Assembly: GCA_016342685.1 (NCBI GenBank)
Contig: JAEINU010000001.1
Span: forward strand, 824,169-888,168
Length of the DNA stretch: 64,000 nucleotides
Origin: Bacteroidales bacterium
GTDB taxonomy: Bacteria > Bacteroidota > Bacteroidia > Bacteroidales > UBA12077
Direction of reading: 5' to 3'
Program-made: the position numbers and the translations under genes
The notes under the pieces: generated by a model
Databases searched by the model: none
Told to the model about the DNA's origin: nothing
What the model saw: the letters and a program-made list of their open reading frames with translations, nothing else
Shown here: positions 5,578-42,502 of the stretch, one piece after another
Numbering within the stretch: position 1 is the first letter of the stretch
How the letters are laid out: each line of letters begins with the position of its first letter

Positions 5578-8500
5578 ATGAGGAAATACTTTTACTCTAT
5601 TTTTAATCTTGAAGATAACGAAGGTTTAAGTGTATTTTTATTCCTCACTCAATCAATATTTCTGGGAATATTTTATGGTGCTTTTGATGTTGGAGCACAT
5701 GCTTTGTTTTTAACTGTATATCCAGCTTCAATGATTCCTAAAGCCTATATTGTTTCAGGTATTGCTGGTATCATTTTAACATCCTTGTATGCACGAATAC
5801 AGAACCGATTGCCATTTTCAAAATTGGCAATTTTAAATTTGATTTTCATTTCTATCTCAACAGCTATCCTAAGATTGTTATTTCAATTTACTGAAAGCAA
5901 TTGGCTTATTTTTCTAATTTTTATAATGATGGGGCCATTAAATATTATTGCTTTGTTAGGATTTTGGGGTGCCGTTGGTCGAATATTTTCTTTGCGTCAG
6001 GGGAAAAGATTATTTGGATTAATTGATAGCGGGCAAATTTTTGGTGCAATACTCAGTACTTTTGCTATTCCTGTATTGGTAGCAGTTGGATTTCAACAAA
6101 AAAACTTATTGTTTTTAAGTTCTGTAAGTATTGTAGGTGCTTTAATTATGCAATTAATAATATCTGTAAAATTTAACTTAAATCAGGTAATTAGTAAGGC
6201 TACAAAAAAACAAAAAAGACTACCTGTATTGTTAAAAAATAAGTACATCTTATTTATGTCTGTTTTTGTTGTGATGTCGATGTTTACAGCGTTCTTTATT
6301 CAATATTCTTTTCTTTCTGTAACAAAGGAGAATTATCCCGATCACAATGATTTAACTGAGTTCTTGGGAGCATTTACCGGAAGTCTTTTATTGTTTACTT
6401 TCTTGTTTAAAACCTTTTTGTATAGTAAGCTAATGAAAGCTTATGGACTGAAAATAAGTATGATTATATCGCCATTTTTACTTGGAATTTTTACATTATT
6501 AGCTGTTGGTATTGGTTCGCTTTGGGGGTATACCTCAGCATCAGCAAGCTTTATCTTTTTCTTTTTAATAATATCGTTAAGTCGCCTTTTCTCAAAAGCA
6601 CTAAAAGATGGAGTTGAGTATCCTTCTTTTAAAATATTGTATCAATCTTTAAAAGTAGATATAAGGCATGATGTTCAGGCTTATGTTGATGGAACTATTA
6701 ACGAAATTGCAGCATTAGCATCAGGACTCCTTTTGGCAGTTCTTGGATTGTTTGAATTTTTCACTCTTATACATTTTTCGTATGCTTTACTTATTATTTT
6801 AGTTATTTGGTTTTTTATCGCAAGAAAACTTTATTTCGAATATAAAACAACACTTCAGGAATCGCTGGCAGAATTCAAAGTTAAAGAAGAAAGTGTAAAT
6901 GATTTTTCCGAATATATAACAGATAATCTTTGTAATGATTTATCTAAAGATCCAAAATTTATAACTGGTATTGAGTTTAATTCGAAAATACATCCACTGG
7001 AATTCGAGCAAAATATTGATCAGTTAATTAGCCATTCAAATTCACAAATTGAAGAATATGCTATTAGTAAAGTTTCAGATCTTAAGTTAATTGAAAAGTA
7101 TATTAATATAAATAGCTTAAAGGAAGTTCACATTGAAAATGAAAATCTGAAAGAGGTTATTCATCGAGCTCAGAAAACTATAGAAACACCAGGTAATACA
7201 GAATTAATAAAATTATCGAAAGCACGAAGCACCGACGAAAGAGTTTTGGCAGCTTTTTTAATTGGTAAATTTTATAACAAAGAGTTATTTGTTTATTTAA
7301 AAGCTTTAATAAGAGATAATCAATCAACTGTTAAAATTGCTACAATTAGATCTGCAACCAAATTACAATTAGAAAGTCTTTGTCCATATATAATTGATTA
7401 TTTAGATTCTGAAGATATATATTCTTATGCCTATGATTCCATTCTTTTGTTCAAACAAAAGGCCTTGAGTTATTTAGATCTAGTATTTTATAAGTCTGGA
7501 ACAAATCATAGAGTGTTGCTTCGAATTGTTAAGTTAATTGCAGAGATAGGAGGAAATGAAGCAAAAGAGCTCTTAGTTAAAAAACTTGATCATCCGAATG
7601 AAGAGATTCTAAACTTTATATTACTCGGATTGCAAAAGTGTAATTTTGAGGCTGATGAAAACAATATTAATCAAGTCCATCAAATAATTGAAAAGCATAT
7701 TGGTCTTATAGGATGGAATATTGCTGCAAAACAAACTTTGTCTGAATACGATATTTTTGAGGAACTTGAGACTGCATTTAATGAGGAGATAACAGCTAAC
7801 TTTGAAATGTTGTATTTACTTCTTTCGCTTGCTTACGACGCGCAATCTGTTCTACATGTAAAAGAAAATATTGAAAGTGGAACTTCAGAAGGAGCTAGTT
7901 ATGCATTAGAACTTCTTGATTTATTTGTGTCTGAAGAGATTAAACCAAAATTATTTCCAGTTGTTGAGGATATTTCTTTATTAGAAAAAATTAGATTATT
8001 ACAAGATTTTTATCCTATAAAAAAACTGGAAATAGAAGAATTACTATTAGATACAATTAATAGAGATATAAATTTTATAAGTCTTTGGACTAAAGCATGT
8101 GCTATAAAAGCGATTAAAAACTTAAAGAATTCAAAAGTAACAGATGATTTGGTTGCGCATTTATTTAATCCAAATCAGCTATTAAGACAATCTGCTGCCG
8201 TAGTAATATACGAGTTGGATAAAGAAAATTATTATTCAATAGAAAAACGATTAAGTGATACTTATAAAGAGGAACTTGAAGATACATTAGATGAGCGCGA
8301 GGGTTCTGAGAATCATTTGTTATTTGAGAAAACACAATTTTTGAAATCCATTGAGCATTTTGAAAATGTGCCAAGTAAATATTTGTTTTTATTGGCTGAT
8401 GTAATGACAGAGTATAAAACAGAGGATGAGAATTTTTCTTTTTATAATGATTTAGAACTAAACGATAAGCTATTGTTAATAAAAGGAGATAGTGTTAGTT

Positions 8501-8721
8501 TAAAAGATGAATCGGCAAGTACATTATTGTTGCCAAATAAATTATATGTGATTGACGATTTAAAGGTAAAATCAAATCATTTTACTTTTGAAAACACCAT
8601 GAATAGCACTGTTTATTTAATTGATAAAAAAGATTTAATGTATAATGTATTTGATTATTATGAGATTGAAGTTTGTGTATTAAAGTGGTTTAGTAATGAA
8701 CTTCAGGCTGAACACATTTAG
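5578..8721 (+). CDS. Large membrane protein: N-terminal MFS/ATP:ADP-translocase-like 11-12 TM domain, central HEAT/PBS-lyase-like repeats, C-terminal degenerate cNMP-binding-like domain
   Basis: About 420 aa of hydrophobic helices at the N-terminus. Roughly 450 aa of leucine-rich alpha-helical repeats. The terminal ~120 aa is a beta-rich module resembling CAP effector domains but lacking a clear phosphate-binding cassette. First gene of a tightly packed co-directional cluster. Confidence 0.5.
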   Translation: MRKYFYSIFNLEDNEGLSVFLFLTQSIFLGIFYGAFDVGAHALFLTVYPASMIPKAYIVSGIAGIILTSLYARIQNRLPFSKLAILNLIFISISTAILRLLFQFTESNWLIFLIFIMMGPLNIIALLGFWGAVGRIFSLRQGKRLFGLIDSGQIFGAILSTFAIPVLVAVGFQQKNLLFLSSVSIVGALIMQLIISVKFNLNQVISKATKKQKRLPVLLKNKYILFMSVFVVMSMFTAFFIQYSFLSVTKENYPDHNDLTEFLGAFTGSLLLFTFLFKTFLYSKLMKAYGLKISMIISPFLLGIFTLLAVGIGSLWGYTSASASFIFFFLIISLSRLFSKALKDGVEYPSFKILYQSLKVDIRHDVQAYVDGTINEIAALASGLLLAVLGLFEFFTLIHFSYALLIILVIWFFIARKLYFEYKTTLQESLAEFKVKEESVNDFSEYITDNLCNDLSKDPKFITGIEFNSKIHPLEFEQNIDQLISHSNSQIEEYAISKVSDLKLIEKYININSLKEVHIENENLKEVIHRAQKTIETPGNTELIKLSKARSTDERVLAAFLIGKFYNKELFVYLKALIRDNQSTVKIATIRSATKLQLESLCPYIIDYLDSEDIYSYAYDSILLFKQKALSYLDLVFYKSGTNHRVLLRIVKLIAEIGGNEAKELLVKKLDHPNEEILNFILLGLQKCNFEADENNINQVHQIIEKHIGLIGWNIAAKQTLSEYDIFEELETAFNEEITANFEMLYLLLSLAYDAQSVLHVKENIESGTSEGASYALELLDLFVSEEIKPKLFPVVEDISLLEKIRLLQDFYPIKKLEIEELLLDTINRDINFISLWTKACAIKAIKNLKNSKVTDDLVAHLFNPNQLLRQSAAVVIYELDKENYYSIEKRLSDTYKEELEDTLDEREGSENHLLFEKTQFLKSIEHFENVPSKYLFLLADVMTEYKTEDENFSFYNDLELNDKLLLIKGDSVSLKDESASTLLLPNKLYVIDDLKVKSNHFTFENTMNSTVYLIDKKDLMYNVFDYYEIEVCVLKWFSNELQAEHI

Positions 8722-8758: not shown

Positions 8759-10765
8759 ATGTTAACCAAACTTGTTACAAGAATAAAAAGATATTATATG
8801 CGAAAAACAACCATTTTTAAGCAACTAATTTTAAATGTAGTAATTCCAGCAGTTTCAGCTTTGCTTATACTGGGCGTATTTAATTATAATCAAACAAAAT
8901 CGAATATTGTAAATTCTATAAATACAAAGAATAAGATAATTTCTCAGGAAATTATTCACATAATGGAATTTCAGGACGTTGCTCTTGAGGTTATTGAGCA
9001 GAGTTTAAATCCTGTAATGCAAACCTATAGTAGTCAGCTAGTAAATAATTATTTCAGAAACACAGACAATATAGATTTTGCCGATCTAAACAAGATTAGA
9101 AGAGAGTTGGGAATGGATATGGATATGGAAGATATTTATATTATCAATAAGGAAGGAATCGTTGTAAATACCACTTTTGAAAAGGATTTAGGATTGAATA
9201 TATTTTCGTTTGGAGATGATCATAAGGAATTACTTCTGGATATTTTTAAAGAAGGAAAGTTTGTAAACGAAAGATTTACAGTCGAATCAAGTACAAAGCG
9301 CCTGAAGAAGTACACCTATCAAACAACATTAGATGGCGAATATATAATTGAATTGGGAATTTATTCTAGACGTGCCGACGACATTATTAATTTTATAAAA
9401 ACAACCGTTAATAAGCTATCAAAAGATCAACCATCAATTGTAGATGTTGATTTATTTATAAGTAAAGATTACCCAATATCATTAAATAAAGATATTAACT
9501 TAAGTGATGAAGAAATTGTTTTCATGAAGGAACGATTCGAGCAACAAGATTCGACTCAGGTTTTTAAGAAAAGAAACAAACAAAAATTATATTACACATA
9601 TCTGTATATTAAAAGGTCAAATACAGATTTATATGAAGGAGCAGTAGTTCGCATAATTGCAGATCGATCTGGCGAAGACAAATTATTAAGGCGTGAAATG
9701 TTAAAGTTTTTAGCCGTTTTTGGATTAACCCTTGTAGTAGTAGTAGTTTTACTGTACCGAAAAACGAGAGTAATAACACATCCAATTAAGAAACTGGTTG
9801 ATAAAGTAAATAGAGTTACAGATGGACATTTGAATGAGCGAGCAGAAGTAATTGGTAACAATGAGATAGCAACGCTTTCGCAAAAATTCAATTCGATGAT
9901 TGAAGAGTTGGAGAGCTATTACAATGAACTGGAACAAAAAGTAAAAGATAGAACAGCTGAGGTGGTTCAACAGAAAGAATTAATAGAAATTAAGAATAAG
10001 CATATTATGGATAGTATCCATTATGCAAAACGAATTCAGAATGCGATTTTACCTCCCGATACTTATGTTAAACAATTACTTCCAAAATCATTTATTCTAT
10101 ATAAGCCGAAAGATGTTGTTAGTGGTGATTTCTACTGGATGACAAAAAAGAATAATCTGGCAATTTACGCTGCGGTTGATTGTACTGGGCATGGTGTTCC
10201 TGGAGCATTTATGTCAATTGTAGGGCATAATCAATTAAATTATGCTGTTGATGTTAAGAAAGCGCGAAGTGCAAATGTTATTCTGGACTATTTAAATGAA
10301 GGTGTTGTGGAGACATTGCGAGAAAAAGGTCAAGTTGGTAAAATAGCAGTAAAAGATGGAATGGATTTAGCTCTTTGTATAATTGATTATAAAAACATGA
10401 AGCTTCAGTTTGCAGGAGCAAACAACCCATTATGTCTGGTTCGAAATAATGAAATGATTCAGATAAAGGGAAACAAGCAGGCTATTGGGGGAGGATTCGA
10501 TGATGAGCTGCCTAAATTCACAAATCATGAAATGGATTTACAAAAAGGTGATGTGATATACACATTCTCTGATGGATATCCAGATCAGTTTGGAGGGCAC
10601 GATGGACGTAAATTTATGGTTAAAAAGTTTAGAGAATTATTGTTAAAAATTCATAGTCATCCGATTGAAGAGCAGGAAAAAATATTAGAAGATATTTTGG
10701 AAGAATGGAGAGGCAAAGAGGAACAAGTGGATGATATATTGATTATTGGAGTAAAAATTGAATAA
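8759..10765 (+). CDS. Membrane-bound PP2C-type (SpoIIE family) serine phosphatase with extracytoplasmic sensor domain and HAMP linker
   Basis: TM1 (LILNVVIPAVSALLILGVF); ~270-aa periplasmic region; TM2 (LAVFGLTLVVVVVLLY); HAMP; coiled coil; PP2C motifs (SGDFYW, DCTGHGVPGAFMS, DGYPDQFGG). Confidence 0.8.
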   Translation: MLTKLVTRIKRYYMRKTTIFKQLILNVVIPAVSALLILGVFNYNQTKSNIVNSINTKNKIISQEIIHIMEFQDVALEVIEQSLNPVMQTYSSQLVNNYFRNTDNIDFADLNKIRRELGMDMDMEDIYIINKEGIVVNTTFEKDLGLNIFSFGDDHKELLLDIFKEGKFVNERFTVESSTKRLKKYTYQTTLDGEYIIELGIYSRRADDIINFIKTTVNKLSKDQPSIVDVDLFISKDYPISLNKDINLSDEEIVFMKERFEQQDSTQVFKKRNKQKLYYTYLYIKRSNTDLYEGAVVRIIADRSGEDKLLRREMLKFLAVFGLTLVVVVVLLYRKTRVITHPIKKLVDKVNRVTDGHLNERAEVIGNNEIATLSQKFNSMIEELESYYNELEQKVKDRTAEVVQQKELIEIKNKHIMDSIHYAKRIQNAILPPDTYVKQLLPKSFILYKPKDVVSGDFYWMTKKNNLAIYAAVDCTGHGVPGAFMSIVGHNQLNYAVDVKKARSANVILDYLNEGVVETLREKGQVGKIAVKDGMDLALCIIDYKNMKLQFAGANNPLCLVRNNEMIQIKGNKQAIGGGFDDELPKFTNHEMDLQKGDVIYTFSDGYPDQFGGHDGRKFMVKKFRELLLKIHSHPIEEQEKILEDILEEWRGKEEQVDDILIIGVKIE

Positions 10766-10767
10766 TT

Positions 10768-12141
10768 ATGACGGATAAAAATCTGGATGTTTTGTTTTAT
10801 GTTCCATCTAAAAAGGAAAATGTAGATGAGCCTGAAAAACAATGGATTAATAATTTGAAATATATCCTTGAAATTAGTCTAAATCAGGTTTTAAAACGAA
10901 AAGCGAATTGTAACTTAGCATATGAAAACGATCCCATTCAAAATTCTGAAATCTATATTCAATGCTTTTTAGGAACAAATTTTTCTAAAGAAAAAACAAT
11001 TCAGAGTATATATAAAAGCGAAGATTTAAATATCTATCATGTATTAATTAACACTAATTCACTTGAGTTTTCGAATGCATTAATCAACTTAAAAACATAT
11101 CGTTTTTATAATGATCAAACCAGTAAGATTCTTGATTTAACATTGAAGTTAGAAGATATTTTAAATACTACGTGGCTTAAAATATCTGATCTTTCGTTTG
11201 AAATAGGAAAGGTTCTAAGAAAAAGGGATAAAAAGATACCTACAAACAATAAAATATTTATTGCAGAAACGAGTCCTGATCAGACATTGAATAGAAATTA
11301 TTTAGTGCGAGAGTTTAAGCATCAGGGTTACACTGTAGTTCCTGAAGATCAACTTCCTAATGATATTGTAAGTTTTAGTGATCAGGTTCAGAATCTTATG
11401 GAAGAATCGCTTATATCGATACATCTAATTGGGAATAATTATGCTCCTTTGCTTAACAATATTGAGATTTCGAAAGTAGAGTTGCAAAATGATATTTTTA
11501 ATGAAGTTATTGTAAAACCTGAATCTTTAAAACGGAATTTGCAGAGATTAGTACTTATTCCTCCTGCTTTAAAACCAAAATCTGACAAGCAAAAAAAGTA
11601 TATTGATAGTTTTAAACTAAATATTGAACTTCAAAAAAATACAGAGATAATACAATCGCCACTCGAAGATTTTAAATCTATAATTCAGAAAAAAGTAGAT
11701 GGATTTTTTAACGAGAATACTAAGCAAAAAGACGTCTCTATAAACAAATCAAAAAAAAGAACCATTTATATTATTGGCAATGGTACAAATGTAAATGCTA
11801 TAAAGGGTTTGAAAGAAGTACTTAATGAAAAAGGGTTTGATTTTGCTGAAACTATAAATTCTAAAAATAAAATTGAATTAATTAAAGATCATCAAAGAAA
11901 TTTAACTCATTGTGACGGTGTAATTGTTTATTATTCATCAAAAAATGAACAATGGTTAAATAGCAAATTGAGCGACATTGTTAAATCTCCTGGTATTGGA
12001 AGAAACATTCCATTTTTACTAAAAGCTATTTTGATAGATGGATTGCAGGAGCCAAAAATAGAAATGAATATTCGAGATTTACTGATTGTTAATACAAATA
12101 AACCCGATTATCTGAATCATTTATTGGAAAAAATAAAATAA
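10768..12141 (+). CDS. Hypothetical protein with two predicted flavodoxin-fold TIR/SLOG-like modules
   Basis: Beta-alpha-beta patterns KIFIAETSPDQ..GYTVVPEDQ..ISIHLIG and KRTIYIIGNGT..GFDF..CDGVIVYYSS. Start codon is 2 bp after the phosphatase stop, 4 bp before the STAND gene. Domain assignment is tentative. Confidence 0.35.
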   Translation: MTDKNLDVLFYVPSKKENVDEPEKQWINNLKYILEISLNQVLKRKANCNLAYENDPIQNSEIYIQCFLGTNFSKEKTIQSIYKSEDLNIYHVLINTNSLEFSNALINLKTYRFYNDQTSKILDLTLKLEDILNTTWLKISDLSFEIGKVLRKRDKKIPTNNKIFIAETSPDQTLNRNYLVREFKHQGYTVVPEDQLPNDIVSFSDQVQNLMEESLISIHLIGNNYAPLLNNIEISKVELQNDIFNEVIVKPESLKRNLQRLVLIPPALKPKSDKQKKYIDSFKLNIELQKNTEIIQSPLEDFKSIIQKKVDGFFNENTKQKDVSINKSKKRTIYIIGNGTNVNAIKGLKEVLNEKGFDFAETINSKNKIELIKDHQRNLTHCDGVIVYYSSKNEQWLNSKLSDIVKSPGIGRNIPFLLKAILIDGLQEPKIEMNIRDLLIVNTNKPDYLNHLLEKIK

Positions 12142-12145
12142 GATC

Positions 12146-15100
12146 ATGGCAGCTAGCAAAAATAAAAATATCAATGACTTAAATAACCCTTTCCCCGGTT
12201 TACGACCCTTTAAGGTCGAGGAAAGTCATTTGTTTTTTGGAAGAGAAGGTCAAAGTGAGGAAATATTAAATAAACTCTCCGACGAAAAGTTTGTTGCTGT
12301 TATCGGTGCATCTGGTAGTGGTAAATCTTCACTAATTTATTGTGGTTTGGTACCTGTATTATTTGGTGGGTTTGTTGGGGATGCAAATTCAACATGGAAA
12401 ATTATAGCTTCAAGACCTGGTAATTCTCCAATAGATAACCTTGCAAATGCAATTATTGGAAATTCAGAGAATGAAGATAACTCGGAAAACAATTTAATAA
12501 AGCAAAAGTTAAATGCTTCTATCTTACGAAGTAGTTCGAATGGTTTAGTAGAAGCTCTTGATCAAAATTACAATCTTGAAAAAGAAAATGTATTAATAAT
12601 AATTGATCAGTTTGAGGAACTGTTTAGATATAAATCGAGTAAAGGTGATCAATCAACATACAATGAATCGGAAGCTTTTGTAAAACTTTTAATCTCTGCA
12701 AATAAGGCAAAAGATGTTCCAGTTTACATTGTTTTAACGATGCGTTCTGATTTTATTGGCGAATGTTCTCAGTTTCATGAGTTAACTGAGTTAATAAATG
12801 AATCCAATTATTTAGTACCGCAAATGACGCGTGATGATTTTAAAAGCGCAATTGAAGGTCCTGTAGCAGTAGGCGGTGCAGAGATAGAAACACAATTAGT
12901 TCAGCAACTTTTAAATGAAGTAGGCGATAATCCCGATCAGCTTCCAATTTTGCAACATGCGCTAATGCGAACATGGAATTATTGGACAGAACATTCCGAC
13001 ACAGAGCAAGCAATTAGTATTTCGGATTATGCTGCAATTGGAAAAATGGAAAAAGCTTTGTCGGAACATGCGAATGAAGCATTTGATGAACTTAACGAAG
13101 ACGAAAAATTCATATGCGAAAGCATGTTTAAAACAATTACCGAAAAAGGTAATGATAATCGTGGTATTCGTCATCCTACAAGTATTAGTGATATTGCTAT
13201 AATTGCAAAAACTTCTACCGATAAGGTAAAGAAAGTTATAGATCCTTTTAGAGCAGCAGGAAGATCGTTTATTACACCATCGTTTGAAATAGAACTCGAA
13301 AATGATAGTATAATTGATTTATCGCATGAAAGTTTAATGCGTATCTGGAATAAACTACGAATTTGGGTTGAGGAGGAATGGAATGCAGTTCAAATGTATT
13401 CTCGATTATCAGAGGCATCGGAGATGTATCAACTTGGAAAAACTAGTTTATGGCGTCCGCCGGATTTACAATTAGCTTTAAATTGGAGAGATAAACAAAA
13501 GCCTACACTAGCTTGGGCTAAGAGATATAATCCTGCTTTTGAACGAGCAATGGTTTATTTAAAAACCAGCGATAAAGAGTTTAAAGCAGAAGAGGAAAAT
13601 AAGGTTAAGCTTCAGAAGAGACAACTTCGTCGTTCTAAGATATTTGCTATCGTATTGGGATCAGCTGCAATTATTGGAGTGGGTTTAACGATTTATTCAC
13701 AAATGCTTAAAGGAAGAGCCTTAAAACAAGAAAAAATAGCAACAGAGCAAAAGATAGAAGCGGATAAGCAAAAGGAAATTGCTGAAGAACAGACAATTAT
13801 CGCAAAAGAGAAGGAAAAGGAAGCCCTTGAACAGAAGGAAGAAGCGGAAAAACAAAAGTTAATTGCAGAGCAAAAGCAAAAAGAAGCAACACGGAATGCT
13901 GAGATTGCAGAAAGACAAACACAAATAGCAATACAACGGCAAGAAGAAGCAAATCAACAAAGAACTCTTGCAGAAAAGAATGCCGAAGAGGCAAGAAAAC
14001 AAACAGTGGAGGCAGAAAAGGCGCGGCAAGAAGCCTTAAGGAGAAGAATGCTGTCGATTTCGCAAAGTATGGCTGTTAAATCGCAACAAATATCCGACAA
14101 TACACAATTGAAGGCCTTGGTAGCGTATCAGTCTTATTTATTTAATAAAGATTATGATGGACCTAAGCATAACCCAGATGTGTATTTAGGTTTGTATTAT
14201 GCTTTAAAAGGATTAGAAGGTCAGTACTTTAATGCGCTCAATGGACATGAAGGATCTGTTATGGATATTGTTTTTGCACCCGAATCGAATGTCATGTATA
14301 GTACGGGTGGTGATGGAAAAATATTAAAATGGGATATTGGAAGTGATAATAAAAAGTTTGAGGTGATTGCTGAAAATCCATTCGTTCAAAGAGCGTTAGA
14401 AGTTACCAAAGATGGTAAATGGTTGATCTGTGCAACCGATCAAGCGAAGATATTATTGTTTAATCTGGAAAATAATGTTGAACAAAATCAAGAATTAATT
14501 GGGCATACTTCATTTGTAACAGGATTAGCGGTTGCTCCCGATAATTCATTCTTTATTTCATCGAGTAATGATAAGACAATTCGTAAATGGAATTTAAAAA
14601 CATTAGAAAGCGAAGTTCTTGTTACAAGCGATTCAAAAATAAATTCAATAGAAATATCTCCCGATTCAAAAAAAATTGTAGCAGGAACTCAAGATGGAAA
14701 AATTAGTATTTATGATTCTAATAACGAGAATTCTCCTATTGTTATTGAATCAAATTCAAAAAATGCAATATCATCAATATGTTATAATAAAAAAGGAGAC
14801 TGGATTGTTTCAGGTGATTCGAAAGGGAATGTTCAAGTTTGGGATGCAAATAATTATACTCAGATAAAAAATCTGCAAGGGCATAAATCAAGAATTTACG
14901 ATATTGCTTTTAACCCTAACGATTGTTTGCTTGCAACATCAAGTTTAGACGGTACCGTTCGGGTATGGGATTGTACAAATTTAAATAATCAGCCAATAGA
15001 GTTAAGAGATCATGAATCTTGGGTATTATCAATTTCTTTTACCCCAGACGGAAACAAATTAGTTACTTCTAGTAATAAAAAAGATAGAATCTTAATTTGG

Positions 15101-15238
15101 GATACTAAGCCAAATGCAATTGCAAGTAAAATCTTAAATAAATTAGAGCGTAATATGTCTGAAGATGAGTGGAATACTTATGTTGCCGAAGATATAGATT
15201 ATATCAAAACAATAGCTGAACAAATTAACACCAAATAA
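12146..15238 (+). CDS. Membrane-anchored STAND-class P-loop NTPase with coiled-coil stalk and C-terminal WD40 beta-propeller
   Basis: N-terminal PGLRPF..FFGRE motif followed by Walker A GASGSGKSS and Walker B IIIDQFEELF (AAA_16/NACHT-like, as in WD40/TPR-coupled STAND proteins). Single TM IFAIVLGSAAIIGVGLTIYS near residue 500. ~110-aa EKQK-rich coiled coil. At least 7 WD40 blades (GHEGSVMDIVF.., GHTSFVTGLAV.., GHKSRIYDIAF.. ending WD/WN). Confidence 0.75.
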   Translation: MAASKNKNINDLNNPFPGLRPFKVEESHLFFGREGQSEEILNKLSDEKFVAVIGASGSGKSSLIYCGLVPVLFGGFVGDANSTWKIIASRPGNSPIDNLANAIIGNSENEDNSENNLIKQKLNASILRSSSNGLVEALDQNYNLEKENVLIIIDQFEELFRYKSSKGDQSTYNESEAFVKLLISANKAKDVPVYIVLTMRSDFIGECSQFHELTELINESNYLVPQMTRDDFKSAIEGPVAVGGAEIETQLVQQLLNEVGDNPDQLPILQHALMRTWNYWTEHSDTEQAISISDYAAIGKMEKALSEHANEAFDELNEDEKFICESMFKTITEKGNDNRGIRHPTSISDIAIIAKTSTDKVKKVIDPFRAAGRSFITPSFEIELENDSIIDLSHESLMRIWNKLRIWVEEEWNAVQMYSRLSEASEMYQLGKTSLWRPPDLQLALNWRDKQKPTLAWAKRYNPAFERAMVYLKTSDKEFKAEEENKVKLQKRQLRRSKIFAIVLGSAAIIGVGLTIYSQMLKGRALKQEKIATEQKIEADKQKEIAEEQTIIAKEKEKEALEQKEEAEKQKLIAEQKQKEATRNAEIAERQTQIAIQRQEEANQQRTLAEKNAEEARKQTVEAEKARQEALRRRMLSISQSMAVKSQQISDNTQLKALVAYQSYLFNKDYDGPKHNPDVYLGLYYALKGLEGQYFNALNGHEGSVMDIVFAPESNVMYSTGGDGKILKWDIGSDNKKFEVIAENPFVQRALEVTKDGKWLICATDQAKILLFNLENNVEQNQELIGHTSFVTGLAVAPDNSFFISSSNDKTIRKWNLKTLESEVLVTSDSKINSIEISPDSKKIVAGTQDGKISIYDSNNENSPIVIESNSKNAISSICYNKKGDWIVSGDSKGNVQVWDANNYTQIKNLQGHKSRIYDIAFNPNDCLLATSSLDGTVRVWDCTNLNNQPIELRDHESWVLSISFTPDGNKLVTSSNKKDRILIWDTKPNAIASKILNKLERNMSEDEWNTYVAEDIDYIKTIAEQINTK

Positions 15239-15239
15239 A

Positions 15240-16274
15240 ATGAATAGATCTAAATCTTATATATTATTATGTATCCTTATTTTAGCGGGATTCATATCTA
15301 ACGCTCAGCAAACAAATTGTGCATTGAAACTCGACGAAGCTGAAAATCTATATGAAATGGGTGTTTTAGATTCGATACCCGCAATGTTAAGATCATGTAT
15401 AGATGATGGATTTGAGAATGAGGAACTTGCGCGAGCATATAAATTGCTTATTAGAACATATCTATTTGAAGATTATCAGGAAATGGCTGAATTAACAATG
15501 ATGAAATTTCTGAAAAAATTTCCTGAATACGAAATCAAAGCGAATGATCCGATTGAGTTCACATATTTATATAAATCGTATAAAACAGTTCCCTTATATT
15601 CAATAGGTATAATCGGCGGTGTTAATAATTCTTTTATAAGAATTATTGAACCTTATAGCCTAGATAATGCAGAAGATTATTCAGGAGAGTATTCTGTTTT
15701 GGGAGTTGGCTATCAGTTTGGAATCCAGATAAAAAGATATATAAATGATGAGATTGAAATAAACTTGGATGCCTTATTTGTAAATAAGAAGTTTGAGTAT
15801 AATAATGAACAATTAGATTCAAAAGTAAATTATAAAGAGAGTCAATCTCATTTATCATTCCCAATTACTGGAACATATGATTTGGAATATAAAAATGTTA
15901 GACCATTTGTTAGATTTGGTTTTAGTATCGATTATTTGTTAGCGTCGACAGCAAGTGTAGAAAGGTCTTTTACAGGACCTACCTCATTGGAAGCCTTAAC
16001 AGGTCCAGATCTAGATGTTGTTGAGGATAGAAACCCTCTGGATTTTTCTTTACTATTCGGTGTTGGATTAAAATACAATGTAAAAAAGGGATATGTCATT
16101 TTTGATGCGCGATACAATTTAGGTTTAACCAATACTGTGAATAGCGAAAATAGATATGCAAATCCTGAGAAAACATGGTATTATAATTATGTTGATGATG
16201 ATTTTGCTATTAATAATGTATATGTTTCAATTGGATATGTTTATCCATTTTATAGAACCAGAAAACAAAAATAG
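15240..16274 (+). CDS. Outer-membrane beta-barrel protein with N-terminal TPR-like helical segment
   Basis: Signal peptide (ILILAGFISNAQQ); helical hairpin; then alternating-hydrophobic beta strands typical of the Bacteroidota OMP_b-brl family. Start is 1 bp after the STAND gene stop. Confidence 0.5.
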   Translation: MNRSKSYILLCILILAGFISNAQQTNCALKLDEAENLYEMGVLDSIPAMLRSCIDDGFENEELARAYKLLIRTYLFEDYQEMAELTMMKFLKKFPEYEIKANDPIEFTYLYKSYKTVPLYSIGIIGGVNNSFIRIIEPYSLDNAEDYSGEYSVLGVGYQFGIQIKRYINDEIEINLDALFVNKKFEYNNEQLDSKVNYKESQSHLSFPITGTYDLEYKNVRPFVRFGFSIDYLLASTASVERSFTGPTSLEALTGPDLDVVEDRNPLDFSLLFGVGLKYNVKKGYVIFDARYNLGLTNTVNSENRYANPEKTWYYNYVDDDFAINNVYVSIGYVYPFYRTRKQK

Positions 16275-16279: not shown

Positions 16280-17473
16280 ATGAATAAATCAAAATATATA
16301 ATACTTTTAATATACATTTTAACCTGCTATGCATGTGATAATTTAGACATCAAGTCAGGTCAATCAGAGTCTTTTATAAAAATATTTGGTTCGTATAGTG
16401 ATGATTATGGTGTAGATATAAAGGAATACGATAATGGTTATTTGATATTAGCAACAGTAAGTCCTAATAATGAAAATACAACAGACATTGCTATTATTAA
16501 AACTGATAAATATGGAAATCAAACAAATATTGAAACAATAGAGAAAAGTGGAAATGATCGTGCTTCAAAACTATTAATAACAAATGATGGAGGTTTTGTT
16601 ATTTTGGGAACATGTGAAGATACTGTTAACAATAACAAAGATATCTATGCTGCTAAGTACACCTCTACTTTAGAAAAAGAATGGACTAAGTCTATTGGTA
16701 AGGTCAGTGAAAATGAGGAAGGAATTTCAATTGCTAAACTATCAGATGGGTATTTAATTGCTGGTAATTCGGACGAAGCCAATGTGGCCAATGGAAATCC
16801 AAGTGGTGTGCAAGATATTGTTTTAATAAAAATAAACGAATCTGGAGATACACAATGGATAAATAGTTTTGGAGGAGTTGCCAAAGATATTGCAGTAGAT
16901 GTAATTGTTACCGATAATGGATTTGTTATAATTGGAACAACAGCAAGTTTTAGTGAACACGGACAGGACAAAGAAAACATAATTGTTATTAAAACAAATT
17001 CGGAAGGAAACGAAACGGATAAGTTAACATATGGAGGTTCATTCGACGACAAAGGTATTGCACTTATAGAATCAGATGCAGGTTATATTCTTCTTGGAAC
17101 CAAAGAGATATTATCAGGAGGAAACTCAGATATTTATTTAGTGTATTTAGGAAATGATATATATGATATTATTGATGAAAAAACATATGGCAGTTCAGGG
17201 GCAAACAATATTGGATCAGCTTTATATTATACAGGTAATAACCTTGTAGTTGCAGGAAGTAATGAAGAAGGAGGTGTAACTTCTGCCTATTTCTTAAAAC
17301 TAGATATTGAAGGAAATATTCTTATTGAAAATACTTTTGGTGGTTACGATGCACAAGTAATAAATGCTATTGAAAAGACAAGCGATGGTGGTTATATTAT
17401 GGTAGGTGTTAGTGGTTTCGGAGGAAATAATCAAATATGCTTATTAAAAGTAAGCTCTGAAGGGGAATTGTAA
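16280..17473 (+). CDS. Beta-propeller lipoprotein with ~50-aa degenerate blade repeats
   Basis: Lipoprotein signal (LTCYACDN). Repeated motifs DGGFVILGT / DGYLIAGNS / DNGFVIIGTT / DAGYILLGTK / DGGYIMVGVS. Confidence 0.5.
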   Translation: MNKSKYIILLIYILTCYACDNLDIKSGQSESFIKIFGSYSDDYGVDIKEYDNGYLILATVSPNNENTTDIAIIKTDKYGNQTNIETIEKSGNDRASKLLITNDGGFVILGTCEDTVNNNKDIYAAKYTSTLEKEWTKSIGKVSENEEGISIAKLSDGYLIAGNSDEANVANGNPSGVQDIVLIKINESGDTQWINSFGGVAKDIAVDVIVTDNGFVIIGTTASFSEHGQDKENIIVIKTNSEGNETDKLTYGGSFDDKGIALIESDAGYILLGTKEILSGGNSDIYLVYLGNDIYDIIDEKTYGSSGANNIGSALYYTGNNLVVAGSNEEGGVTSAYFLKLDIEGNILIENTFGGYDAQVINAIEKTSDGGYIMVGVSGFGGNNQICLLKVSSEGEL

Positions 17474-17516: not shown

Positions 17517-20500
17517 ATGAAAAAGAGATATCAAATATTCTATATATTATTGTTTGTACTAATATCCAATCTGGGATTTGCACAATTAACTATAGTTAAT
17601 GCACTAGCTGTTGATGGCGATTCAAATGGATTTTATGGAACAGTGGAGATAGAATTTTCTACTGGAGTTAACGATGCTGAAATGCAAACAAGTGCATTGC
17701 CGCGAGACGATTGGGAGTTTTCTGAAGACCCAGAATTTACAACTTTTATTAGACCTAATAGCTTTAGTACAGAAGTTTTTGATATCGCAGTGGCAAATGT
17801 AGCAAATGATAAATATATTCGATTAACATTTCCATCTGAATTTTCTTCGAGTACTGGAACAATTTATTATAGATATATAAATGGTAATCTAGGTTCAGAT
17901 GATGTAACAGATTTTACTACAGGAACAGATGTGTTAGCTGATTTTGCAATTAAAAGTGCCACTGATGGTGCACCGCCTGTTATTTCTGGCGTTGTTTCAA
18001 ATGCAACAGATGCTGGAGTTTTAAAAGTTGGTGAATCGATTGTATTTACCGTCGATTTTGAAGATACTACTAATGATCCTAATTTAACAATACTACCTGC
18101 TCAATATAATAGTGAAGATTTAAACTGGATTACATCAAATGGTGGAGATACTTATACTGGAACGTATACTGTTACAGAAGGAAATGCAGATCAAACCACG
18201 GAATTACAATTAACAGGAGTAACAGCTACAGATGAGTATGGCAATGTGAGTGCATCTTTTAACGGAACTGATGTAGATAAAACGATTGATGCAAATACAC
18301 CTACTATTTCTTCAGTAACATCTGATGCAACTGCTGCTGACACATTAATTGTTGGAGAAACGATTACATTTACTGTTGATACAGAAACAGGACTTACAAT
18401 ATTACCCTTACAGTATAATGGACAAAACTTAAATTGGACAGCTATTAGTGGTGGAGATACCTATCAGGGTATATATACAGTAATGGAAGGTGATCAAGAT
18501 AGAATAACACCATTGCAGTTAACAGGAGTAACAGCTGAAGATGCTGCTGGGAATATTAGCAATACTGAAGATGGTAGTGATGTAGTAAAATCTATCGATG
18601 CAAATACACCATCGATAGTGACAGTTAAATCTGATGCAACAGCAGCTGGAATTTTAAAAGTTGGTGATAAAATAACTTTTACAATTGATGTTGCCACTCC
18701 AGATGGGAACTTAAGTGTAAATCCTTCCAATTATAATGGAGAAACCTTAAGTTGGTCTACGAGTGATGGAGGTGATTCATACATTGGAATATACACTGTA
18801 GTGGATAATGGTGTGGATCAGACTTCAGATTTGCAACTAACAGGAGTAACTTTAACAGATGCTGCAGGTAATGTTAGTAGTTCCGTTGATGGTGTTGATA
18901 TAGAGAAAACAATAGATTCAAATATACCTACTATTTCTTCAGTAACCTCCGATGCAACTGCTGCTGACACATTAATTGTTGGAGAAACGATTACGTTTAC
19001 CGTTGATGTTGTTGATACAGAAACAGGACTTACAATATTACCCTTACAGTATAATGGACAAAACTTAAATTGGACTGACATCAGTAGTGGTGATACTTAT
19101 CAGGGTATATATACCGTAATGGAAGGTGATCAGGATAGAATAACACCATTGCAGTTAACGGGAGTAACAGCTGAAGATGCTGCTGGGAATATTAGCAATA
19201 CTGAAGATGGTAGTGATGTAGTAAAATTAATCGATGCAAATACACCATCGATAGTGACAGTTAAATCTGATGCAACAGAAGCTGGGATTTTAAAAGTCGG
19301 TGATAAAATAACCTTTACAATTGATGTCGCTACTCCAGATGGGAACTTAAGTGTAAATCCTTCCAATTATAATGGAGAAACCTTAAGTTGGTCTACGAGT
19401 GATGGAGGTGATTCATACATTGGAATATACACTGTAGTGGATAATGGTGTGGATCAGACTTCAGATTTGCAACTAACAGGAGTAACTTTAACAGATGCTG
19501 CAGGTAATGTTAGTAGTTCCTTTGATGGTGTTGATATAGTGAAAACAATAGATTCAAATATACCTACTATTTCTTCAGTAACATCTGATGCAACTGCTGC
19601 TGATACATTAATTGTTGGAGAAACAATTACATTTACTGTTGATGTTGAAGATACAGAAACAGGACTTACAATATTACCCTTACAGTATAATGGACAAAAC
19701 TTAAATTGGACTGAGGTTAGTAGTGGTGATACCTATCGGGGTATATATACAGTAATGGAAGGTGATCAAGATAAAATAACACCATTGCAGTTAACAGGAG
19801 TAACAGCTGAAGATGCTGCTGGGAATATTAGCAACACTGAAGATGGTAGTGATGTAGTAAAATCTATCGATGCAAATACACCATCGATAGTGACAGTAAC
19901 ATCTGATGCAACCTTACTAGGAGTTCTAAAAGTTGGAGATAAAATTACATTTACTATAGATGTGGTTACTTCTGATGGAAACCTAACAGTTAATCCTACA
20001 AGCTATAATGGCAGAGCTTTAAATTGGTTTACAGATGATGGAGGCAGCACTTATACAGGAATATACAATGTTACAGAAGGAGATCCAGATCAATCTTCAG
20101 CTTTGCCTTTTACAGGAGTGACCTTAACTGATGTAGCAGGTAATGTAAGTGCAATATATAGTGCAAGTGATGTTGTAAAGACGATTGATGCGAATTCTCC
20201 ATTTATAAATAATTTTGTTGTACCTCAAATTAATATGACAATAGGAAACACTTATACAGCCACGATAAGTGTTAGTTCAGATCCTGATACTTATACTCTT
20301 ACTTCTGGTGAACTATCTGGATTTACGTTACATTCTTTAACAAAAGATGCTGATGATTCTTATTCGGTTGATTTTACTATTACCGATTTAGGATACGACA
20401 TATTAAGTGATAATTCATATTTGATTTCTAATTTGGTGATGTCAGATGCCTCTGGTAATATTTCAAATACTTATTCAAGTTCAATAAGTCAAATAAATGA

Positions 20501-23500
20501 TCCTATTTATACAATTTCTCCTTCGGCAAAAGTTTCAGGAAATTATGATATTTGTGATAAAGATTCAGCAACACTTTTATTTCAGTTAACAGGTAATTCA
20601 CCTTGGGATATTGAGCTAGATACTGGAGTAGGAATAACCACTATTTCAAGTATAAATGCCTCGCCTTATATTTATAAAGTACAAGCGAATGATTTAAATA
20701 ATTTGGTTGATCCTGATACTGCAATATATAAAATTACACAGGTTACAGATGTAAATGGGATTATTGTCAGTGTAGGTTCACCAATCGATAGTGCTACGGT
20801 ATTTGCTTATAAATTACCTGTAGTTGATATTACATATCCTGCGGGAGATCAAACATATAATATAAGTGCAAGTGAAGATACTTTAGTTGGAAATCCTCTT
20901 AATGGGATTTTTACTGGAGCAGGAATTGTATCCTCAAATAACACATTTCATCCTTCATCAGCAGGTCTTGGAGAGCATAATATAGAATATACTTATACAG
21001 ACCCAACCTCAGGATGTTCAAATTTAGACTCAGTAGAGTTAACCGTTATAGAATCAGCAGCAGAAATTGTTTTTCAAAATAACGATACATGGTGGTGTGA
21101 TTATGAAACATCGTTTACTTTAACAGGAGCTGTAGTCGGGAAACCGTCAATAGTTGGAACTTTTTCTTTAGATAAAGATGGAGGCGCAATTAGCTCGACA
21201 GCTGATAATGCTGCCATAATTGATATTAGTTTATTAGTTAGCGGGGGGTCTTACATTGTTAGTTATAGTTATTTTGATGGTGTTCCAATTACATTCATAA
21301 AAAGTTTTACTATTGAATCTGTAAATACAGATATTGGTATTCCAGTTATTAATGATATGTGTGAAGATTATGATACAGTATTTGTAAATGCTTATAATCT
21401 TGCTCCATTAGGAGGTAGTGGTACTTTTACCTTTTCAGGCAGTAGTAGTGACTATTTTATAAATGACCCTAACAATAATAAACTTTATTTTTATCCTGAT
21501 TCGATTGCTCCCGGGGATTATAATTTGAAATATTACTACACAACTCCAAATGGATGTAATAGCGTTGAAACATCACGAGATTTTAAAGTAAATGCCTTAC
21601 CAATTGTTGATATTGTAATGGATAATCTTTATAATATTGAGGGTGGAGTTGAAATTATTTCTGGAACTCCAAATACACCAGCAGGTATATTCTCACCTAG
21701 TTTCATGATTGACAATAGTAACGGAACAGCGAACTTTAACCCATCTATAGTGGGTTTAGGTATTGATACTGCATATTATACTTATACAGATGTTAATGGT
21801 TGTGTTAATCAAGATACCGCAATATTTGAAGTTGATAAAGCAAAAGGACAATTCTATGGATTAGATAAGTTTGATTCTAAAAATCAATATTGTTATTTTA
21901 ATAGTTTATCCGATACAATTAGTGTAATTCCTTTAAATGGGAGTGGTTTTCCAGGTTCATTTTATATTGATAATATATTATTTACTAATAATGTTGGTAA
22001 TGATAGTATAGCATTTTCACCTTCAGATATAATTTCAGGAAACCATGATTTGAGATTTACATATACCAGAGATGGAGTTGAATTTAATCTCGATACAGTC
22101 TTTAATATTGATTCCATTGGGAGTTTAAGTGTTGTTGGACTTGATAGTGAATATTGTCAAGATGATGATAGAAGCATTAATCTTACGGGGATTTCAGATG
22201 GCGCTGGATCAGGTTTAAGTATTTTTGGAGGGGATGGTATTACTGATGTAAATGGAATATTTAAACCAGCTGATGCTAATATAGGAACAAATACGATCTC
22301 ATACACATTTACAAGAGATGATTCTGGGTGCCAAAAGAGTGTTAGTGTAAATAGCCTAATAAATAAAGTGCCAGATATCGGATTTATTCTTGAAAAGACT
22401 TGTATTTCTAGCATTCAAGATTCTGTTTTATTTACTTCAGATACTTTATCATCTGATAATGTGATTAACTGGAATTGGTCTGTAACAGCACTTGGAAATA
22501 GCAGATTAAGTAATGAAATCAATCCTAAATTTTCGTTAACAAAGCAAGAGAAAAACTTTATTTCATTAACTGTTGAAACAGATAAAGCGTGTTCTTCTTC
22601 TCTAGATAGTAGTATTTTTATAGGTTCTGTTGTAGATATAGATTTCTCTTGGGATAAGGAATGCTTTGGCGAAACAGTTACATTCAAGGTTTTAGAAAAA
22701 ACGGATGAGCTAGGGGTCGACAGTGTTCGATGGAATTTTGGAGGAGATGGTTTTTCCGATTTAACAGATATTTATAATCCGCAATATACATATGATGTTC
22801 ATGGAGGGTATGATGTTACATACGAAGAGTTTACAAAATCTTGTGGACTTATTTCAGAAACCCTAAAGATAAATATTCGTCCTTCCATTAGTTTAAGTTC
22901 TGGGGCATATTTCGAAGATTTTGAAGAAGAATCAGATGTGACTGGATGGGCTGTTGATATTTTAGAAAGTACTTCGAACTCATCATGGGAATGGGGTGTT
23001 CCGAATGGAACGCTTATCAATACAGCAGCAGATGGAACTAGTGCGTTTGTTACAAATTTGGATGGGAATTATGCAAATGACGAGAAATCTATTATTTCAA
23101 GTCCTTGTTTTGATTTGTCGGGACTTGAACGACCAATGATATCGTTTGATTTTATTTCTGATCTTCAAGAAGATAGAGATGGAGTTGTAATTGAATATGC
23201 TGTTGATAAAGAAAACTGGAAGATATTAGGATTTGCAGATCAAGGTGTTGATTGGTTTAATACAAACACAAATTACGATGCTATTTTAGGTTCTTCTAGA
23301 GCTTGGACTGGCGATGGCGAAGGTGAATCATTTTCAAGTGAGGATGTAGAATGGAGAAAAGCGAAATATTGGCTCGAAGATGTAGTTGGAGAAGCAGGAG
23401 TAAGGTTTAGGTTTACTCTGGGAACTGATGATGCCGGAGTGAATGAAGGTTTTGGATTTGATAATTTGCGAATTGGTGATAGAAACAGAATGGTATTATT

Positions 23501-24464: not shown

Positions 24465-25019
24465 TTATCTGTTATCTCTTCTTCGATAATGCTTTTCTTG
24501 GTTTTCCCTTCGATGAGAATTTCGTCTAGGCTCTTTATCTTGAACAGAAATCATTCGAATAAATAATTTCTTTAAGACTTCTTGTTGTTCTTCATTGCAA
24601 ATTTCTTTTAGTCCAAGAAAATGATCCGAAGTAAGTAATTTTAGTTCATAATGCAAATTGCCAATTTGTCTTGAAATTGAATCTATATTTTTCAGATTCG
24701 GATCTTTATTAGCAATTTCATCTATTAATAAATGCCTGTATTTATTGAGTGCATCACTTTTATTTCGTGTTTTCACTGCATACTCTCTATTGATATTTTT
24801 AAACGCATTAAATTGCTCATCTGATAATTTTAATTCATTTCTAAAATAATCATACATTCCTGATCTTCTAATTTCTTCTTTCTGAATATTTATCTTATCT
24901 ATCTTTTTAGCTTTAATTTTACTATTGTAATAAATAGTACCTAATGCCGATACATTTATTATTACAAGTAAAGTAATTAGAATAATTAGAAGTCTTTTTT
25001 TATTAATACTATTCATCAT
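24465..25019 (-). CDS. Periplasmic Spy/CpxP-family (LTxxQ-like) protein, likely envelope-stress chaperone
   Basis: Signal/anchor helix; helical repeats with LSDEQFNAFK and LTSDHFLGLKEI motifs; last gene of the ECF sigma operon. Confidence 0.5.
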   Translation of the reverse strand: MMNSINKKRLLIILITLLVIINVSALGTIYYNSKIKAKKIDKINIQKEEIRRSGMYDYFRNELKLSDEQFNAFKNINREYAVKTRNKSDALNKYRHLLIDEIANKDPNLKNIDSISRQIGNLHYELKLLTSDHFLGLKEICNEEQQEVLKKLFIRMISVQDKEPRRNSHRRENQEKHYRRRDNR

Positions 25020-25030
25020 TAATAAGTTTA

Positions 25031-25513
25031 TTATTTTTGAATTAAACTGTCATTATTTATTAGAGTATTTTCTATACTTTCAATTTCAAAATCATTTAAG
25101 TATTTATTTTCAGAAAAGACTTTAATATAATCTTGCTCTTCAATATTTAATTCAGAGTATTGTTCTGAATTTCCGGAATATGAACCAATTTGTATTCCAA
25201 TAAATACTGCTATTATAACAGAAGAGAGATACAGGGCTGGTTGCATTATTTTATTATTATATAATCTTGTTAAAACAGAAGTTTTTTGAATAAGATTGCT
25301 TTCTATTTTCTGTTTTAATCTTGTATAATAAAATGCGTGTTCTTCAATATTTTTTGTTGGCTTTAACAAATTAAGCGTATTAATAACGCTGGTATATTTA
25401 CTGTAACATAACGTACAATTATCAAGATGTAATTCAATTGCCTTTCTGTTCTCATCTGATAATGATCCATCAATGTACTTGGATAATATTTTATTTACAT
25501 CTTTACATCTCAT
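25031..25513 (-). CDS. Anti-sigma factor (zf-HC2 type) with single TM
   Basis: N-terminal H-x3-C-x2-C motif (LHLDNCTLC); central TM (LYLSSVIIAVFIGIQIG); located immediately downstream of the ECF sigma gene. Confidence 0.7.
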   Translation of the reverse strand: MRCKDVNKILSKYIDGSLSDENRKAIELHLDNCTLCYSKYTSVINTLNLLKPTKNIEEHAFYYTRLKQKIESNLIQKTSVLTRLYNNKIMQPALYLSSVIIAVFIGIQIGSYSGNSEQYSELNIEEQDYIKVFSENKYLNDFEIESIENTLINNDSLIQK

Positions 25514-25566
25514 TGGTCTATTTTTTGTTATATGACACTTATAATGTGCTTATTATTACAAATTGT

Positions 25567-26136
25567 TTAGTTTTTTTTGTAATAATCAAGTATTAATTTT
25601 TGTAATTTCTTTTTACCTCTATTAATTAAAACTCCAACTTCTGATACAGAAATTTCCATTACTTCTGATATTTCTTTGTACGATAAATCTTCAAAATTAT
25701 TCAGAGTTATAGCTATTCTTTGTTTTTCAGGGAGCTTATTAAGTGCAAAATACAATGCTTTTTTATTTTCGTTACGCTCAAGATCTTCACCAGGCTTTAG
25801 CGCTGTATCTTCAGGATCATTTTTTTTTGAGTCATCATTAAAAAGAACATCTAAACTCGAAAATAATCTATTTTTTTTCTTTGATCTTAAGTAGTTTAAA
25901 GATTTATTAACTGATATTCTGTACAACCAAGTTGTTATTTTAGAATCGCCTCTAAACGATTCGATTGATTCGTAGAACTGAATAAAAACCTCCTGTGAAA
26001 CATCCATAGAATCATCATAGTTGTTTAAAATGTTGTTGCAAATATTTAGTACAAGATGATGATGCATTTCAACAAAGGTTTGAAACGCTTTTTCATCTTT
26101 ATTTGCAATTTTATCTATTAGGATTCTTTCGTCCAT
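25567..26136 (-). CDS. RNA polymerase ECF-type sigma-70 factor
   Basis: Region 2 (FQTFVEMHHHLVLNICNNIL ... WLYRISVNKSLNYLR) and region 4 HTH (LSYKEISEVMEISVSEVGVLINRGKKKL). Confidence 0.85.
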   Translation of the reverse strand: MDERILIDKIANKDEKAFQTFVEMHHHLVLNICNNILNNYDDSMDVSQEVFIQFYESIESFRGDSKITTWLYRISVNKSLNYLRSKKKNRLFSSLDVLFNDDSKKNDPEDTALKPGEDLERNENKKALYFALNKLPEKQRIAITLNNFEDLSYKEISEVMEISVSEVGVLINRGKKKLQKLILDYYKKN

Positions 26137-28373: not shown

Positions 28374-28405
28374 TTTCTCATTTTTTATACTAAAATAACT
28401 AAAAA

Positions 28406-28972: not shown

Positions 28973-29068
28973 AATTTAAATGATTATTAGTGATCCAAAT
29001 TATGAAATTTGAATCACTAAAAAAAGCGCAACCAGTAATTGTTGCGCTTAGATTTAATTTGAAATTAA

Positions 29069-42474: not shown

Positions 42475-42502
42475 ATAAGGGTAGGTTTTTTTAGTTTGTA
42501 GA

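Follow-up and report, generated by a model that had tools for sequence, protein, structure and literature searches.

TIR-like NADase domains with an essential conserved Glu have been described in three 2026 preprints, in which DUF4062 is renamed NIR; the Glu corresponds to E97 of KpSwz, E108 of PsAvs2, E98 of Vulcan, E103 of Vesta, E1008 of TEP1 and E87 of Eva01, and activity is abolished by E87A in Eva01 and by the E-to-Q exchange in PsAvs2, Vulcan and TEP1. Of the human proteins, NWD1, NWD2 and NPHP3 (DUF4062-NACHT-WD40/TPR) were inactive as NADases in vitro, and among NWD1, NWD2 and TEP1 only TEP1 is an active NADase. TIR domains are, in turn, among the N-terminal effector options of the conflict systems in which an effector is combined with an nSTAND1 or NACHT module, optionally a transmembrane (TM) segment, and FGS or repeat domains (Kaur, Burroughs, Iyer and Aravind, 2021, eLife 10:e70394). 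Here, we consider a gene of a Bacteroidales bacterium (GenBank assembly GCA_016342685.1) that lies within a stretch of 64,000 nucleotides, in the following called the window (contig JAEINU010000001.1, positions 824,169 to 888,168), and encodes a 457-aa protein, the target, directly upstream of a STAND nucleoside triphosphatase (NTPase). Three domains of the TIR superfamily follow one another in the target, the first a degenerate TIR, the second a DUF4062/NIR domain and the third probably TIR-like, and a role as adaptor or sensor appears more likely for it than one as enzyme. The searchable literature yielded no account of the operon.

The open reading frame (ORF) of the target extends on the plus strand from an ATG at 10768 to 12141, stop codon included. 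An AlphaFold2 model built on 38 homologues (mean predicted local distance difference test, pLDDT, 82.9) shows three separate alpha/beta domains connected by low-confidence linkers, the N domain (aa 1-152; 10768-11223), the M domain (aa 160-322; 11245-11733) and the C domain (aa 330-457; 11755-12138). The original prediction, made from the letters of the DNA, had proposed two beta-alpha-beta modules of TIR-, SLOG- or nucleoside deoxyribosyltransferase (NDT)-like fold. Both exist and reside in flavodoxin-fold domains: the segment KIFIAETSPDQ...ISIHLIG spans betaA to betaC of the M domain (strands 162-165 and 214-220 in the model) and belongs to a DUF4062/NIR domain, and the segment KRTIYIIGNGT...CDGVIVYYSS spans betaA to betaC of the C domain (strands 332-336 and 384-389), which probably has a TIR/NDT-like fold. 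A third such domain, residues 1-152, had been overlooked, and no specific similarity to SLOG was found. The expectation of a Rossmann/flavodoxin-like fold agrees with the model, and Foldseek matches the M domain to TIR structures, namely SPARTA TIR-APAZ and the RPS4 TIR, with a probability of 1.0. A phmmer search of the target against PDB sequences returned a chance match to macro-H2A only (E 1), an NCBIfam search nothing meaningful, and none of the hhalign comparisons of N versus M, N versus C, N versus DUF4062 and C versus DUF4062 was significant.

In the window protein, the M domain stays below the gathering score of Pfam DUF4062 (PF13271; 13.7 bits with a cut-off of 24.7, E 0.073, aa 162-225); of the M domains of 38 homologues, 27 match DUF4062 and 12 match TIR_2, and full-length distant relatives score above the DUF4062 cut-off (P0098 with 32.3, P0206 with 31.0, P0113 with 29.1 and P0216 with 28.7 bits). 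Against PDB sequences, the M-domain profile retrieved SPARTA TIR-APAZ at an E-value of 0.2 only. As a reference served DUF4062 genes from plasmids of S. aureus (Eva01-type, pSaa6159), Vibrio and Rhizobium, whereby the pSaa6159 protein matches the published Eva01 numbering at F11, W51, E52, E87, Y88, W162 and F212. Alignment of a 50-sequence M-domain profile to these three proteins by hhalign gave a probability of 95.1% and an E-value of 3.4e-8 over 84 ungapped columns. At the profile level, the M domain is homologous to bona fide DUF4062/NIR domains, with F164 of the target corresponding to F11 of Eva01, S235 to S82, E238 to E85, Q240 to E87 and N241 to Y88.

As this ungapped alignment puts Eva01 E87 on Gln240 (codon 11485-11487), the catalytic Glu is a Gln in the window protein. 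The replacement is a family trait, with Q in 286 (93%) and E in 20 of 307 full-length members, P0098 being of the type with a natural Glu, and the preceding conserved acid, Glu238 in the window (codon 11479-11481), is D or E in 298 of the 307; these statistics, as those of the 50-sequence set, derive from a biased sample. Other DUF4062 features are kept, such as F164 (Y or F in 50/50), G222 and Y225 of a G-x-x-Y-G motif and S235 of the 'SYT' region (45/50). Not kept is the Q/W/E motif, Q50-W51-E52 in Eva01, at the place of which the ungapped alignment shows F203-S204-D205 in the window. Glu238 had at first been taken as the catalytic Glu, based on the spacing relative to SPARTA E77 and an insignificant N-versus-M hhalign register, an assignment ruled out by the 95%-probability alignment, which sets Eva01 E85 opposite Glu238.

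With respect to the N domain, Pfam recognizes neither TIR_2 nor TIR in the window protein. N domains of relatives do pass, TIR_2 with 37.9, 37.2 and 35.6 bits (cut-off 28) and TIR with 23.7 and 23.0 bits (cut-off 21.3), and the family consensus reads DIFISY...ILSp-Y--S--C--EL. Across the wider family, the N domain has the profile of a canonical TIR, of which the window's version is a degenerate form. The column of the catalytic Glu, E in 28 of 50 and 95 of 307 sequences, is occupied by Ser80 (codon 11005-11007) in the window protein and in its Bacteroidales clade. The same clade has lost the segment between betaB and betaC, and with it the BB loop and alphaB, a deletion visible as a 12-column gap in the alignment of the window N domain and in the AlphaFold2 model, where just 7 residues and no helix separate the strands 48-52 and 60-67. 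Column assignments in the N domain are less certain than those in the M domain.

The C domain contributes the strongest motif of the family, W396-x-x-S-K400-x-x-D403-x-x-K406-x-P-G-x-G-R (K400 codon 11965-11967). W396 and K406 are conserved in 50/50 and K400 in 49/50 sequences, and conservation extends to D403 and P408-G409-x-G411; in the larger set, the Lys400 column is Lys in 302 of 307 members. Modelled alone, the domain reaches a pLDDT of 87.1 and a predicted template modelling score of 0.82, and the predicted structure supports assignment to the flavodoxin-like fold class, with a more tentative placement among TIR domains in particular. Similarity to the M domain is weak (hhalign E 4e-4, probability 35%), and the profile retrieves from PDB sequences only de-novo designed Rossmann 2x2 proteins, with their idealised beta-alpha-beta composition. 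Lys400 comes to lie at the position of the TIR Glu in the N-versus-C hhalign register, which is itself non-significant. Assignment as a receiver domain was considered and rejected, as beta3 does not end in a phospho-acceptor Asp and conservation maps to alphaC and the loop after it.

Ser80, Gln240 and Lys400 are the residues found at the positions equivalent to the catalytic Glu in the N, M and C domain, respectively, and 208 of the 307 family members lack the Glu in N and M domain alike. The original prediction had suggested to look for a conserved catalytic Glu and had raised NAD+-derived or nucleotide signalling coupled to the STAND switch. No such Glu is present, and as the canonical residue is replaced in all three domains, NADase activity or NAD-derived signalling is not favoured; Gln240 is the very E-to-Q exchange of a residue essential in the characterised NIR proteins. 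It had further been stated that the idea would fall if a conserved catalytic Glu were missing and homologues lacked any association with a STAND protein; the Glu is indeed missing, but the STAND association is present.

The partner gene (12146-15238, plus strand) encodes a protein composed of an nSTAND1 NTPase (aa 15-429), a TM helix (approximately aa 497-520), an E/K/Q-rich coiled coil and a WD40 propeller (approximately aa 750-1000). Pfam nSTAND1 is matched with an E-value of 3.3e-96 starting at residue 15, in addition to WD40, and with the NTPase profile starting there the protein has no N-terminal effector domain. Phmmer mapping of the window proteins onto 64 related loci, complemented by four further loci (68 in all), showed the target directly upstream of the STAND gene in every one of them, in Bacteroidales as in Cytophagales. 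That a TIR-type module is supplied in trans, as originally proposed, is supported by the domain identities, and is a fair description since the STAND protein lacks an effector domain of its own and the adjacency holds in every related locus. A TM helix at position 493-537 is present in 54/54 STAND orthologues among the loci L001-L064, flanked by a charge of +6.5 on the N-terminal (NTPase) side versus +0.7 on the C-terminal side. According to the positive-inside rule, the NTPase would be cytoplasmic and the coiled coil and the WD40 propeller periplasmic. The coiled coil that follows the TM helix comprises around 120 residues extremely rich in E, K and Q, and a periplasmic WD40 propeller is an unusual topology for a protein resembling nucleotide-binding leucine-rich repeat receptors (NLRs). 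On one MAG contig (L007/L053, 9712-11887), only a WD40 fragment of 213 aa is called for the STAND gene, whereas homology to the entire STAND protein extends over an ORF at 9676-12525, pointing to a problem with the sequence or the gene call in the public entry.

The junctions of the target with both neighbours are tight. The TAA of the upstream ORF (10763-10765) is followed by 'tt' and the ATG of the target, and its own TAA (12139-12141) by 'gatc' and an ATG at 12146, which confirms the gaps of 2 bp and 4 bp reported originally. Target and STAND gene of relatives are separated by 1-4 bp or overlap by 4-14 bp. Judged from gene spacing, translation of the target may be coupled to that of its neighbours. 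No terminator-like site was detected between 5700 and 17600, and a sigma-70 promoter scan was uninformative in this AT-rich Bacteroidota DNA, with 80 sites versus 68 expected.

On balance, we lean towards a target without catalytic activity that serves a trans-envelope STAND switch as adaptor or ligand-binding partner. Cytoplasmic and encoded by a gene of its own, it would represent the N-terminal module of the neighbouring nSTAND1-TM-WD40 NTPase, the WD40 propeller of which would sense a periplasmic or envelope cue. The cue would cause nucleotide-dependent oligomerisation of the STAND protein, which in turn would cluster or release the three-domain protein, acting then as a non-catalytic scaffold or as a module binding a small NAD- or nucleotide-like ligand and not as an NAD+ hydrolase. 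Such a scheme presumes a physical interaction of target and STAND protein and a signal the nature of which may be envelope-derived.

How does this arrangement compare with the described systems? With the DUF4062/NIR NADases, that is Swarozyc, Evangelion Eva01, Vulcan, Vesta, PsAvs2-NIR and human TEP1, the target shares the homologous M domain including the F164/F11 equivalence, the G-x-x-Y-G motif and the Ser of 'SYT', and with PsAvs2-NIR in particular the association of a NIR domain with a STAND NTPase. It differs by Gln240 in place of the catalytic Glu and the missing Q/W/E motif, by two additional TIR-type domains flanking the M domain where the NADases have an AUX or sensor region, and by being encoded apart from the STAND protein on the chromosome, vertically conserved and without a defence-island or plasmid context. 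The nearest architecture is provided by the eukaryotic DUF4062-NACHT-WD40 proteins NWD1, NWD2 and TEP1, which likewise combine NIR/DUF4062, a STAND NTPase and WD40. Here, however, two polypeptides are involved, the NTPase is nSTAND1 and not NACHT, the TM helix would put WD40 outside the cytoplasm and extra TIR or TIR-like domains are present. The conflict systems of Kaur et al. (2021) share the nSTAND1 clade and a C-terminal sensor, but in the window the effector-type module is provided in trans and neither fused nor recruited via effector-associated domain (EAD) adaptors, the sensor is WD40 instead of FGS, neither a diversity-generating retroelement nor multiple effector paralogues are present, and an operon of envelope and type IX secretion system (T9SS) genes is conserved across orders. 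Compared with canonical TIRs (PF13676/PF01582; SPARTA TIR-APAZ, SARM1, plant TNL TIRs and animal TIR adaptors), the window N domain lacks alphaB, the BB loop and the Glu, the C domain has a Lys at the Glu position, and no TIR is found on the partner proteins for homotypic TIR-TIR recruitment. New with respect to the known NIR/TIR-STAND-WD40 theme are the split into two genes, the three TIR-type domains, the E-to-Q exchange, the membrane-spanning organisation and the vertically conserved envelope/T9SS operon.

A less probable, though serious, competitor of the adaptor reading is that the target is an active NAD+- or nucleotide-processing effector in the classical TIR/NIR role, activated by oligomerisation of the STAND protein and working through the conserved D/E238 or, in other clades, the N-domain Glu; NAD+ would be depleted or a signal produced as by Avs2-NIR, Swarozyc, Vulcan and TIR-NLR proteins, and the operon would serve immunity as a conserved system that senses the envelope. 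The true DUF4062/NIR homology of the M domain is in line with this proposal, as are the recurrence of NIR and TIR as N-terminal effectors of STAND proteins, with nSTAND1 proteins often carrying TIR, the almost invariably acidic column 238 and the cNMP (cyclic nucleotide)-binding domain of the first operon protein, which could receive a nucleotide signal. What makes it unlikely is that the essential Glu is a Gln not only in the window but in the great majority of the family, an exchange that kills PsAvs2, Vulcan and TEP1, with residue 238 sitting two positions earlier on the helix and the Q/W/E motif lost. Nor does the setting argue for immunity, with a vertically conserved block, no defence-island context and no meaningful matches in PADLOC, the models of which were matched three times, weakly and over short parts, by unrelated families (E 6e-4 to 7e-3). 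Among these, the match of the target to MTase_II (E 5.8e-4, aa 16-121) was judged spurious.

Regulation by phosphorylation is a further possibility, raised by the gene located 2 bp upstream. This gene, an optional insert in the operon, encodes a membrane-bound, SiaA-like HAMP and SpoIIE/PP2C phosphatase (8759-10765, plus strand; Pfam SpoIIE 5e-17, HAMP 1e-11) and matches NCBIfam SiaA with an E-value of 3e-76, a score below the cut-off of that model. The target could then be a phospho-regulated switch, dephosphorylated by the phosphatase in a partner-switching-like gating of the STAND protein, for which the Ser and Thr positions invariant in the family, S235, T292 and S399, offer candidate sites. 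The proposal is improbable, as 35 of the 60 loci with sequence upstream of the target have the phosphatase gene and 25, including all Cytophagales examples, lack it with the rest of the block unchanged, no cognate kinase is present in the operon, and the target has no STAS or SiaC-like fold. A coincidental resemblance to TIR, in alpha/beta domains of a generic flavodoxin or receiver-like kind, is highly improbable, a reading largely refuted already for the N and M domains by the hhalign match to real DUF4062 proteins and by homologues scoring above the TIR_2, TIR and DUF4062 thresholds, and at odds with the lack of a phospho-acceptor Asp in the C domain.

The non-catalytic adaptor favoured here is part of a family of considerable size. 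In an exhaustive profile search, 2878 clusters (50% identity) were retrieved at E<=1e-3 and 905 at E<=1e-30, almost all of them full length with 450-500 aa; a word index had yielded 57 homologues of the target, to which a profile re-search of the index added almost nothing new. The members, labelled 'hypothetical' or 'DUF4062 domain-containing' in the source records, originate from Bacteroidales metagenome-assembled genomes (MAGs) and from Cytophagales, namely Imperialibacter roseus, Chryseolinea lacunae, Cyclobacteriaceae and Reichenbachiella. One locus on a contig labelled Thiohalospira sp. MAG (L031, JBKHIH010000070.1) shows the order FMN reductase, Vut_1, MFS/HEAT, SpoIIE, target and STAND, with the target gene split into two overlapping ORFs; the probable explanation is a Bacteroidales contig that was binned wrongly and bears a frameshift or an assembly error, and not an occurrence in gammaproteobacteria.

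As far as the contigs extend, the related loci display one gene order throughout, MFS/HEAT, optionally the SpoIIE phosphatase, target, STAND, outer membrane protein (OMP) barrel, lipoprotein-like protein and, often, a giant T9SS cargo. The first gene of the operon (5578-8721, plus strand) encodes a 1047-aa MFS-like polytopic membrane protein with HEAT repeats (Pfam HEAT_2 3e-9, weak MFS_1) and is found upstream of the target in 56 of the 60 upstream-extending loci, with the contig ending inside the phosphatase gene in 2 others. A C-terminal cNMP-binding domain is recorded on its orthologues of L066 (6694-9945) and L068 (6590-9844). The block without the phosphatase was also observed in one further Bacteroidales-type and three Cytophagales-type loci, with cNMP-binding on the first protein in two of the latter. 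The MFS/HEAT protein could be a transporter responsive to nucleotides or second messengers that is coupled to the TIR/NIR-STAND pair.

Downstream of the STAND gene, and conserved there across loci, follow the genes for an OMP beta-barrel (15240-16274, plus strand; Pfam OMP_b-brl_2 2e-17) and a lipoprotein-like repeat protein of around 397 aa (16280-17473, plus strand), with signal and lipobox-like N termini visible in the translations. Always following these two in the block is the gene for a giant repeat-rich surface protein of 2303 aa (17517-24428, plus strand), orthologues of which carry a Por_Secre_tail (T9SS) sorting domain; the protein contains many near-identical Ig-like repeats of about 95 aa, e.g. 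...SSVTSDATAADTLIVGETITFTVD... Only synteny suggests that target and STAND protein are functionally tied to the MFS/HEAT protein, the OMP and the T9SS cargo. The flanks of the block in Bacteroidales are housekeeping genes (Vut_1, aroA/aroC/aroK and parC), the guanine-cytosine content is uniform at 29-33%, and no integrases or mobile-element genes were seen around the block. Membership in a known defence system or defence island was not found, and the block reads as a vertically inherited operon of Bacteroidota.

Elsewhere in the window, the giant T9SS cargo gene is immediately followed by three genes on the other strand (24465-26136) that look from their translations like an envelope-stress module. 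They would encode a charged protein anchored in the membrane by its N terminus (24465-25019), an anti-sigma factor of the zf-HC2-like type (25031-25513) and an ECF-type (extracytoplasmic function) sigma factor (25567-26136). Tandem paralogous proteins of 694 aa (26289-31153, minus strand), by eye of the translations prolyl-oligopeptidase/S9-like lipoproteins, are separated by a 188-aa ORF (28406-28972) and look like a recent duplication. Further on, at 40402-51900, four genes for methyl-accepting chemotaxis proteins with PDC/dCache, HBM and CZB sensor domains stand in a row; such receptors are uncommon in Bacteroidales-type genomes.

Taken as a whole, the operon can tentatively be pictured as NLR-like machinery for signalling across the envelope, present throughout the phylum Bacteroidota and inherited vertically, in which a periplasmic WD40 sensor on membrane-anchored nSTAND1, a cytoplasmic three-domain TIR/NIR pseudo-enzyme as its adaptor or ligand sensor and the MFS/HEAT/cNMP-binding membrane protein would be connected to an output arm of OMP, lipoprotein and T9SS adhesin. 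Its function would possibly be housekeeping signalling at the envelope and surface and not abortive-infection immunity, and it might be a bacterial counterpart, perhaps even a relative, of NWD1/TEP1-type proteins.

With respect to the wider biology, bacterial TIR and NIR/DUF4062 domains are now understood as horizontally spreading, NAD+-destroying immune effectors, a view with which this large family contrasts. Should the target be an enzyme after all, it would represent a variant of the NIR active site with a D/E-x-Q-N motif. If it instead senses ligands or serves as an adaptor without catalysis, bacteria would offer a clear case of the scaffolding use of TIR and NIR domains that is so far mostly a feature of animals, and the target would provide a prokaryotic model for the inactive NIR beside STAND and WD40 in NWD1, NWD2 and NPHP3. 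The model is possibly tractable, with the block present in the named species Imperialibacter roseus and Chryseolinea lacunae, and an NLR-like receptor with a periplasmic sensor would constitute, if true, a new topology.

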